Shown: positions 2,464 to 4,147 of the stretch, in pieces
Position numbering within the stretch: the stretch's first letter is position 1
How the letters are laid out: each line of letters begins with the position of its first letter
NCBI GenBank assembly: GCA_008080745.1
Contig: SHMX01000001.1
Coordinates: 570,001-602,000 of the forward strand
Direction: 5' to 3'
DNA length: 32,000 bases
From: Candidatus Thorarchaeota archaeon
GTDB taxonomy: Archaea; Asgardarchaeota; Thorarchaeia; Thorarchaeales; Thorarchaeaceae
The notes under the pieces: model-generated
What the model was told of the DNA's origin: nothing
Seen by the model: the letters and a program-made list of their open reading frames with translations, nothing else
The model's database searches: none
Made by a program: the position numbers and the translations under genes

Positions 2464-2764
2464 TTCATTATGATTGATTGAAGCCTTGTCGTTTATTATG
2501 ACGCACCCAATTTTGCAGGTATTACCAATCGTATTATTTCTATTGAGTCTAAGATAGATACTCCTACAAGGAATCTCTTTCCAGTTTTGGCTGTATATTG
2601 CAACTGCTCAGAATCCCTAATCGTATAGTGGAATATCCAATTAGCTTGTTCTGCACGAAGGAATTAGCTTTCAAATGCTGCATTTACATATCATCAATAG
2701 CACTATAAGCAGGTACGACCATATACTAGGTTGTGCCATCACGGGATTATGAGGAGCGAGTCAA

Positions 2765-4147
2765 ATGAGTCGGATTCTTAGAAGGCAATTCAAGGTTTGT
2801 CTCTTAGGGAATGGCTTTGTCGGCAAGACAAGTATACGCCGAGAATATTTGAAAGAAGGATTCAAGAGAAGCTATATTCCTACTCTGGGGGTTGACTTCG
2901 CTCAGAAGCAGACGGAATACAAGGACATACCTACAACACTCGTTATTTGGGATATTGCAGGCCAAGAGGCATACAAAAGACTGCGACGTCAGTACTATCA
3001 AGGTTGTTCTGGAATGGTTCTAGTATACTCTGTGGTAGATAGACAGTCATTCGATGATGCAACCAAATGGCTTGTAGAAGCACACGGATTCATAGAAAAA
3101 TTCCCACCATTGATTATTGCCGCAAACAAGATAGATCTTCGTCCAACACATCTAATAGAGGAAACAGTTACCACCAAAGAGGGTCTGGAGTTTACCGAGA
3201 GGTTCAGAGAGAGATTAGGAACGCCTGTTATCTTTTTGGAAACATCCGCCTTGGAAAATATCAATATAGATGAGGCTTTTGAAGCGCTTACCAAAATGAT
3301 GGTAGGAGATGAAGCATTTGAGGAGATTGAATTAGAATATTCTACTAGACCAAAAGCATCAACATCCGAGGTAGAACCCAAAGTTTCAGAATTGCAAGAG
3401 TCTTTGAGAGAGGAACCATCTACTGCAGAAGCAGATACACAACAAGCTGAAACAGTGGATAGAACAGAGAGCATCGTGGCAGATCGAACTGCCGATTCTG
3501 AAGTCAAAGTTGAAACCAATGAAGAACCTACTGGCAAAGTAGCTGTTTCAAGCTCGGAAGCAACAGAAACCAGTAGCAGGGAATCTGTTACTGAGAGGTT
3601 CACACCAAGTTCAGAACAAGAGGAATCAACAGCAAAGGTTTTCAAATCTGGGGTAGAGGTTCAGAAGGAATCTGTTGATGAAGATATAGAAGAAGTAGAA
3701 AAACCAGCAAGAGAGATTGTAGAAATACCCTACACAGAAGATGGCGATTTAGAACCTATTACATCCTTACCTGCAGGGTCTCAATATCTAAAGGAAGAAG
3801 AAATTGGCAAAGCAATGGCAAAGCTAGTTGAACTTCGAAAGAAATTGAAGGAAAAAGAAGATGAACTAGCTAACATTCTCTCAGAGGCAGAAAAGAAGCT
3901 TCTCACGCTAAAGAACACTGTACATGTCAAGAAGCTAATGTATGATCATCTGCAAGAACAACTTGAACAAACCCGAAAAGAATGGGCGGATGCATACGAC
4001 GAATACGTAGAGGTTGATACTGCCAAGAAGAAAGCGGTCTCTAAGAAACTCGAACAGATGAAAGATATTCGGGACCATATTGAGGAAGTCGGAAGAGGAA
4101 TCCGGAAGCGAGTCAGTAAGCTGGATCTCAAGAATATGGCCGAATGA
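2765..4147 (+). CDS. Rab/Ras-like small GTPase with acidic linker and C-terminal coiled coil
   Basis: G1 GNGFVGKT, G2 YIPTLGVDF, G3 WDIAGQE, G4 NKID, G5 ETSAL; E/S/T-rich linker (aa ~180-340); heptad-patterned C-terminus. GAGGAG RBS upstream. Confidence 0.92.
   Translation: MSRILRRQFKVCLLGNGFVGKTSIRREYLKEGFKRSYIPTLGVDFAQKQTEYKDIPTTLVIWDIAGQEAYKRLRRQYYQGCSGMVLVYSVVDRQSFDDATKWLVEAHGFIEKFPPLIIAANKIDLRPTHLIEETVTTKEGLEFTERFRERLGTPVIFLETSALENINIDEAFEALTKMMVGDEAFEEIELEYSTRPKASTSEVEPKVSELQESLREEPSTAEADTQQAETVDRTESIVADRTADSEVKVETNEEPTGKVAVSSSEATETSSRESVTERFTPSSEQEESTAKVFKSGVEVQKESVDEDIEEVEKPAREIVEIPYTEDGDLEPITSLPAGSQYLKEEEIGKAMAKLVELRKKLKEKEDELANILSEAEKKLLTLKNTVHVKKLMYDHLQEQLEQTRKEWADAYDEYVEVDTAKKKAVSKKLEQMKDIRDHIEEVGRGIRKRVSKLDLKNMAE

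Follow-up and report, generated by a model that had tools for sequence, protein, structure and literature searches.

Asgard archaea carry dozens of Rab-like switches and are reported to lack the prenylation machinery by which Rabs are attached to membranes in eukaryotes; how the archaeal switches come to be localised, and which processes they control, is treated as an open question (PMC10933270). That question is posed in a concrete form by a gene in a stretch of 32,000 nucleotides from a Candidatus Thorarchaeota archaeon (the window; positions 570,001 to 602,000 of the forward strand of contig SHMX01000001.1, assembly GCA_008080745.1). The gene, at 2765-4147, is one open reading frame (ORF) with no internal stops and a stop codon at 4145-4147, and its 460-residue product is a genuine three-part protein, conserved across one Asgard (Thorarchaeia) family: a Rab-like G domain, an acidic linker, and a C-terminal module built around a long helix. 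What is new here is the module itself, which is undescribed, is common to several head types and, according to structure modelling, is probably self-pairing. For one lineage, the protein would offer a concrete and testable answer to the question of placement, in the form of a protein-based localisation and assembly module carried at the C-terminus on a flexible tail.

An earlier interpretation of this DNA, made from the letters and their translations and referred to here as the sequence-only reading, had proposed a Rab-like GTPase fused through an acidic linker of ~160 residues to a coiled coil of ~115 residues. The acidic, disordered character of the linker (composition, AlphaFold2 [AF2]) and the long heptad helix (residues 341-452, AF2) were both borne out; the lengths were revised, to 148 residues for the linker and to about 130 residues for the conserved C-terminal unit.

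A fused gene conserved across one Asgard family

The orthologue in a second genome of the same genus (G336) is full-length and 76% identical, and a search with residues 185-460 recovered five further proteins of 357-485 residues, all with Ras and Arf Pfam domains. In an alignment of these homologues, conservation is seen in the G domain and across the final ~130 residues; the spacer between the two is free in both length and sequence. The sequence-only reading had proposed looking for the same architecture in other Asgard genomes, and it was found in 58 of the 86 genomes of one family, distributed over 11 of 16 genera, with G-domain matches at E 1e-69 or better. These matches sit in open frames of 338-489 residues, and their coordinates abut the matches to the module. 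At all 31 loci that were re-analysed, G domain and module lie in a single ORF; at none of them are homologues split into two genes, a pattern that the sequence-only reading had considered the mark of an assembly chimera. This is a genuine fusion, and an old one.

That reading had also suggested a phylogeny of the G domain among Asgard small GTPases. In a quick IQ-TREE analysis of the paralogues from the host genome and the fused orthologues, the fused G domains were resolved as one clade (Shimodaira-Hasegawa-like approximate likelihood ratio test, SH-aLRT, 97), with a plain Rab-like paralogue of ~200 residues from the host genome (C1:653544-654065) as its sister. This topology is consistent with a single origin, in which the gene would have arisen by duplication followed by acquisition of the tail. 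Several of the module-bearing proteins carry Thorarchaeia-type names at NCBI, and some close homologues were labelled Lokiarchaeota by their submitters.

Also found were in-frame TAG codons inside the module genes of several family genomes (G317:C1, G393:C104, G394:C133, G340:C154 and locus L054). At L054 (G383:C16), TAG occupies codon 304 of the fused gene, a position where CAG (Gln) is conserved, and conservation continues downstream of it. Recoding, or a pyrrolysine codon, was considered for this site and rejected, as the replacement of CAG and the intact downstream sequence point to a recent point change or a sequencing error.

A Rab-like GTP switch

Residues 10-179 match Pfam Ras (PF00071) with an E-value of 3.8e-41 and 140.8 bits against a cut-off of 21.6, and the domain also matches TIGR00231 (small_GTP; E 8e-21, 74.5 bits against a cut-off of 42.5). 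All five G motifs and the catalytic Gln (DIAGQ) named by the sequence-only reading are readable in the translation, including T40 as G2 and ETSAL (residues 159-163) as G5; the other three are listed in Table 1. In the P-loop, G15, G17, G20, K21 and T22 are invariant in six fused homologues, and their equivalents are invariant in 32. T40 and ETSAL likewise do not vary among the fused homologues. These motifs predict a catalytically competent GTP switch.

Relationship to Rabs was evident in both sequence and structure comparisons. Among solved structures, the sequence closest to the G domain is that of the Thorarchaeota Rab, 7ezb (E 4e-28), and the other 59 PDB sequence matches listed after it are all Rab, Ypt or Sec4 proteins. 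When the structure model was searched with Foldseek, the best 50 matches were all Rabs, with template modelling (TM) scores of 0.75-0.85 by target and identities of 28-35%. The strings LGVDF (41-45), YYQG (77-80) and LVYSV (86-90), which the sequence-only reading had likened to RabF signatures, were found at these positions in the translation. The RabF1-F5 consensus that Pereira-Leal and Seabra are said to have given in 2000 reads IGVDF, KLQIW, RFRSIT, YYRGA and LVYDIT; compared with it, F1, F4 and F5 are approximated by LGVDF, YYQGC and LVYSVV, TLVIW is a partial F2, and the string at the place of RabF3, AYKRLR, does not match.

The only cysteines of the protein are C12 and C81. Linker and tail have none, and there is no other lipidation signal. 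The protein ends in NMAE, a 485-residue orthologue (P0002, L010, L032) ends in KNMAE in the same way, and a C-terminal Cys for geranylgeranylation is absent after residue 81 both here and in five homologues, in agreement with the sequence-only reading, which had noted that a prenylation motif was missing. Since this motif is absent and RabF3 is unrecognisable, the domain is classed, from its sequence and structure relatives, as Rab-like rather than as a Rab in the eukaryotic sense.

Other multidomain GTPase families were considered. PF08477 (Roc) appeared only as an overlap of the Ras match, the COR family is absent among the Pfam matches, and the tail is modelled by AF2 as a single helix, not a COR fold; there are thus no signs of membership in the Roco proteins. 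No septin family is found among the Pfam matches of the protein, the structural neighbours of which are Rabs, and no EF-hand was matched by Pfam.

The host genome (3.16 Mb, 98% complete) contains 27 frames with G domains of the Ras superfamily. Several of these are multidomain, for example a 793-residue frame (C7) with its G domain at residues 605-777; others measure 545 (C1) and 633 (C4) residues.

Linker and C-terminal module

Glu accounts for 24% of the linker, Ser for 13% and Thr for 10%. The linker has a net charge of -28 and was disordered in two separate AF2 runs, with predicted local distance difference test (pLDDT) values of 28-38 in the model of this protein. Its sequence is unconserved among orthologues. 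Across the 31 fused loci it is between 27 and 170 residues long, with a median of about 62, and in every case net acidic; the longest linkers are those of the window gene and its sister genome.

What follows the linker is conserved and has no counterpart in the domain collections searched. Residues 183-460 match no known domain in Pfam or NCBIfam, and the tails of the homologues have only sub-threshold matches to generic coiled-coil Pfam families (Tmemb_cc2, CCDC22_CC, LXG, DUF745). A profile search of the PDB with the module returned generic coiled coils at a best E of 0.024, and the ESM Atlas gave no feature match and only unspecific long helices as structure matches. No description of the architecture or of the module was found in the full-text literature that was searched. 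Six homologues share 52 invariant columns in the module. K (17%) and E (14%) are abundant in the tail, which has a net charge of +2 and no hydrophobic or transmembrane segment.

A profile of the last 135 residues, run against 1.84 billion representative proteins, found only 36 matches, and these include a second group of proteins, in which a four-Cys zinc ribbon (PF13240) is N-terminal and the module is at the extreme C-terminus. The modules of this group were matched with profile E-values of 1e-9 to 1e-14 and stronger, and over ~130 residues they align with the GTPase-linked modules almost without gaps. In 26 module sequences covering both head types, three positions never vary (N384, R449, L453) and three more (K389, Q399, I439) are conserved in at least 90%. 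The specific residues shared, together with the nearly gapless alignment, indicate homology rather than merely a common heptad composition. Zinc-ribbon heads occur in several paralogous classes, and weaker-scoring module classes also have them. These proteins resemble the GTPase in having a small head, a long disordered linker and a homologous C-terminal module; they differ in the head and in the linker, which is 204-234 residues long and Pro/Thr/Ala-rich, in contrast to the acidic linker of the GTPase.

There are also genuine headless module proteins of ~135-160 residues, in four genomes. The coiled coil is therefore not specific to GTPases, as it is also linked to zinc ribbons and occurs without any head. 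Among 400 sampled genomes of the phylum, 80 of the 85 that belong to the window's family (the host genome not counted) contain the module, in 1-5 copies, and none of the 315 from other families does. The tail is an autonomous, undescribed module confined to one Asgard family, and this distribution makes it a sharply bounded example of lineage-specific domain shuffling in eukaryotic signature proteins, a pattern noted earlier for Asgard genomes (bioRxiv 10.1101/2020.10.19.343400). Because of that confinement, it has little to say about the ancestor of eukaryotes. The host genome has a single module copy, the GTPase-linked one; its next match has an E of 0.12, and no zinc-ribbon type was found in it.

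Several observations concern the other module proteins. The headless genes (L071-L074; G361:C87, G349:C11, G346:C133 and G340:C339) encode proteins that start with MIAM(V/A)DPEYL and end in a Lys/Glu-rich stretch, and each lies just downstream of a gene for a ~210-residue regulator with a C-terminal HTH_10-like helix-turn-helix, forming a conserved pair in one genus. The idea that headless proteins are halves of the GTPase gene was rejected, as they are a distinct paralogue class that follows this regulator gene in four g11 genomes. In zinc-ribbon module proteins (e.g., the L022:780-1904 frame, residues ~60-140), a conserved short helical segment, EKA-x-EAFAKAEEVGIEE ... ETRMLRASEV, lies between the zinc ribbon and the Pro-rich linker, and database entries P0022 and P0032 begin exactly there. 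One zinc-ribbon example, P0028, is annotated as 'zinc-ribbon domain-containing protein' at NCBI and as 'ribosomal protein S27AE' at IMG. P0040 (662 residues, on a 2.1-kb ENA contig) combines a zinc ribbon, the first ~105 module residues and ~290 further residues with a weak match to an SBBP beta-propeller; this may reflect a fourth architecture, or else a frameshift or a chimera in the gene call.

Predicted self-pairing of the module

AF2 models the tail as one helix of 112 residues (341-452) with pLDDT above 90, and a second model, built for an orthologue with a short linker from 32 aligned sequences, likewise has the G domain folded, the linker disordered and a helix of 117 residues. Both models are at odds with a non-helical C-terminus, the outcome that the sequence-only reading had seen as fatal to its proposal. 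A single heptad register runs from ~345 to 420, with hydrophobic occupancy of 0.5-0.75 at positions a and d and 0.1-0.25 elsewhere, and the hydrophobic positions of the seam (I347, M351, L354, L361, L368, L379, L396, W407, I439 and L453) are the most conserved.

Coiled-coil and multimer predictions, both proposed by the sequence-only reading, point the same way. A two-copy prediction of the module, made with our own 26-row alignment of module sequences, had an interaction prediction score from aligned errors (ipSAE) of 0.55 (runs 0.55-0.56), versus 0.00 for the best control. Contacts agreed between runs to at least 98%, and the pLDDT of the partner was at least 87. In the calibration of the tool, 20 of 30 proteins solved as same-chain pairs attained this mark, against one of 23 solved as single chains. 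Contacts pair residues i and j of the module such that the two numbers sum to about 146 (36-110, 57-89, 71-75), placing the dyad near residues L396-E398. These pairs are of the a-d' type, which is a requirement of antiparallel coiled coils (PMC8640212, section 8.2). Conservation is higher in the columns of the predicted interface than in the remaining ones (0.72 vs 0.55; Mann-Whitney p = 1.5e-4). The prediction supports an antiparallel homodimer of the module, and in this form, as a model, the self-oligomerising GTPase proposed by the sequence-only reading has gained support.

Near the dyad, outside the predicted interface, is a second conserved stripe, in which N384 is invariant in 26 sequences and V388, L/I391 and D/E394 are conserved. 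It is a candidate surface for a partner shared by the different module proteins, or for higher-order assembly.

Proposed mechanism and alternatives

The module is common to different heads, and the host has no second module gene; the simplest reading is a self-pairing device for docking or assembly. In a genome that is 98% complete and has a single module copy, self-pairing is the only module-module option. We favour, at slightly better than even confidence, a dumbbell made of a Rab-like switch, a variable acidic leash and a self-pairing helical module. Two modules would pair head-to-tail in a two-stranded antiparallel coiled coil, a rigid rod of about 17 nm. With antiparallel pairing the linkers exit at opposite ends of the rod, so the GTPase heads would be placed at its opposite ends, one leashed head at each, rather than side by side. 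The module would act as an assembly or docking unit common to the GTPase, zinc-ribbon and headless forms, and in the GTPase it would replace the hypervariable tail and prenyl anchor of eukaryotic Rabs, fixing the switch at a cellular structure or partner, probably through the exposed stripe around N384. A dimer with two heads could bridge two GTP-dependent targets.

A more specific version, to which we assign an outside chance, makes the protein a tethering device of a new, family-specific prokaryotic kind, in which a Rab-like switch and its coiled-coil tether would be united in one chain, as in the second option offered by the sequence-only reading. The antiparallel rod, with a head at each end, would bridge two membranes, vesicles or cytoskeletal elements in a GTP-dependent manner, and the zinc-ribbon and headless paralogues would join the same scaffold. 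If this were true, archaea would have arrived on their own at GTPase-controlled tethering, in parallel with the Rab-golgin logic seen in eukaryotes.

Several points weigh against the dumbbell. The orientation of coiled coils is notoriously hard to predict, septin tails being described as ambiguous in this respect (PMC8640212), and the higher conservation at a, d, e and g would also be compatible with a parallel dimer or a higher oligomer. The calibration of the 0.55 mark applies only roughly, because our own alignment was used. Clustering of the neighbours of the 31 fused loci revealed no conserved partner gene, and the docking or bridging role is suggested by analogy alone. Direct membrane binding is unsupported, because the tail is almost neutral (+2) and lacks a hydrophobic segment, and a membrane-anchor tail was rejected as a candidate on the same two properties.

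The coiled coil could instead be a built-in effector. In this scheme its dimer would dock on its own G domain or on Rab-like paralogues, with the head folded onto the stripe in one nucleotide state and released in the other. Solved Rab complexes often contain dimeric coiled-coil effectors, to judge from titles that name LidA, RILPL2, the OPTN leucine zipper, ELKS1 and FIP3; the conserved stripe lies outside the predicted dimer interface, and the 27 G domains of the genome could bind in trans. However, the same stripe is kept in the zinc-ribbon and headless forms, which have no G domain of their own, and a linker of such variable length has no conserved motif to guide a fold-back. The arrangement of head and rod in the two AF2 monomer models (6 and 32 sequences) was in neither case confident (predicted TM scores, pTM, of 0.35 and 0.50), which is weak evidence in the same direction. 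We regard autoregulation of this kind as unlikely.

Polymerisation is a further alternative. The module might form tetramers, filaments or meshworks, perhaps of mixed paralogues, with the heads decorating a cytoskeleton-like scaffold in a septin-like manner. Most genomes of the family have 1-5 module genes, the stripe is partly hydrophobic (V388, L/I391) and is unused by the dimer model, and antiparallel coiled coils are reported to bridge septin filaments (PMC8640212). Mixed assemblies are not required, however, as the host has only one module gene, and the sequence has no repeat or filament-type periodicity beyond the single helix of 112 residues. We regard a lattice as unlikely.

A tail that does not oligomerise at all, serving as a stiff monomeric spacer in the form of a stable single alpha-helix (ER/K-type), would agree with the high K and E content and with the one straight helix of the monomer model. 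We consider it very unlikely, because conservation of a hydrophobic seam is not expected in a lone, solvent-exposed helix: the a/d positions are hydrophobic in one register over about 75 residues and are the most conserved, and the two-copy model scored above its controls. Finally, we give practically no credence to an artefact, whether a chimeric assembly or two genes mis-called as one by read-through, as its sole hint, the existence of short module-only database matches, disappears on inspection (they begin inside the G4 or G5 motif or occupy contigs of less than 2 kb, and are therefore truncated gene calls), the true headless forms are a separate paralogue class, the same single ORF recurs in 31 independently assembled loci, and the window's gene is carried by a 669-kb contig.

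The dumbbell reading is accessible to experiment. The module is short and is predicted to be soluble and self-pairing, suggesting that it could be easily expressed and used as bait for partners, and the zinc-ribbon-borne modules provide an internal comparison.

Comparison with known systems

Thor-Rab (7ezb; PMC10933270) is the best sequence match among solved structures, and it shares the Rab-type fold, the catalytic Gln, and the lack of both a C-terminal Cys and a prenylation route. It differs in being a single domain of 182 residues with a truncated C-terminus, to which the protein described here adds a 148-residue linker and a 130-residue module. The survey of the architectures of 74 MKD1 GTPases names single-domain forms and fusions to longin or roadblock domains, and no fusion of the GTPase-coiled-coil kind (PMC10933270). 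Lineage-restricted architectures are reported for most multidomain Asgard signature proteins (bioRxiv 10.1101/2020.10.19.343400).

Eukaryotic large Rabs (Rab44, Rab45/RASEF, Rab46/CRACR2A) also combine a G domain of the Rab type with a coiled coil in a single chain, arranged as EF-hand, coiled coil and then C-terminal Rab domain (PMC8303950, PMC7645795). The sequence-only reading had pointed out that the order is reversed here, and these papers agree. Large Rabs differ further in their EF-hand and prenyl tail, and PDB and ESM Atlas searches indicate that the coiled coils are non-homologous. Judged from the distribution of the module and from the G-domain tree, the combination of Rab and coiled coil arose independently within one archaeal family.

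Septins resemble the protein in having a GTPase, a flexible segment and a C-terminal coiled coil, and their tails are reported to form antiparallel homodimers that are thought to bridge filaments 15-20 nm apart (PMC8640212), a spacing close to the predicted rod of ~17 nm. Their G domain is of the septin type, in contrast to the Ras/Rab type found here, their helix is shorter and their linker much shorter, and for the present G domain neither G-G nor N-C filament interfaces are known. By analogy, the protein might also be compared with the hypervariable region and geranylgeranyl anchor of eukaryotic Rabs, where a G domain is likewise followed by a disordered variable tail and a C-terminal location device. 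That device is a Cys and a lipid in eukaryotes; here it would be a folded module that is predicted to pair with itself.

Sequence features and neighbouring genes

Coordinates of the gene and its parts are given in Table 1.

Table 1. Features of the fused GTPase gene in the window (position 1 is the first nucleotide of the window).
Feature	Residues	Position	Strand	Basis
Whole gene: 460-residue Rab-like GTPase, linker and C-terminal module	1-460	2765..4147	+	ORF list, translation
Putative Shine-Dalgarno-like hexamer GAGGAG, 8 nt 5' of ATG		2751..2756	+	Read from sequence
Rab-like G domain	1-182	2765..3310	+	Pfam Ras, TIGR00231, PDB sequence matches, Foldseek
G1 P-loop, GNGFVGKT	15-22	2807..2830	+	Sequence, conservation
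G3 switch II, DIAGQ, with catalytic Gln67	63-67	2951..2965	+	Sequence; equivalent columns invariant in 32 fused homologues
G4, NKID, guanine specificity	121-124	3125..3136	+	Sequence; N, K and D invariant in fused homologues
Acidic disordered linker, 148 residues	183-330	3311..3754	+	Composition, AF2
Conserved C-terminal module: cap PxTSL, long heptad helix, end LDLKNMAE	331-460	3755..4144	+	Conservation, profile search
Predicted continuous alpha-helix, about 17 nm, with predicted antiparallel interface	341-452	3785..4120	+	AF2, two-copy model
Conserved stripe outside predicted dimer interface, near dyad	N384, V388, L391, D394	3914..3946	+	Column conservation versus interface list

At the 31 fused loci the recurrent neighbours are antisense shadow ORFs and a convergent YjbQ/UPF0047 gene (13 of 31). 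In the window, a 233-residue ORF, P0050 (4321-5022, + strand), lies between the GTPase and YjbQ genes. It has a signal-peptide-like N-terminus and a Tyr/Gly/Asp-rich body, has no Pfam match, and is absent from the otherwise syntenic locus of the sister genome (L010), where YjbQ directly follows the GTPase gene.

On the other side, a divergent gene (1687-2463, - strand) encodes a 258-residue winged-helix regulator of the HTH_20/ArsR type with a FilR1-middle-like C-terminal part, and beyond it lies a gene for a DUF6064 membrane protein (987-1679, + strand). Both are kept in the sister genome (L010) and are not found beside more distant orthologues (L009). An inference of function from an operon was rejected, as only YjbQ recurs and the HTH_20 and DUF6064 genes are limited to the sister genome. 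The GTPase gene and the divergent regulator gene share an intergenic region of 301 bp (2464-2764), within which the GAGGAG hexamer falls.

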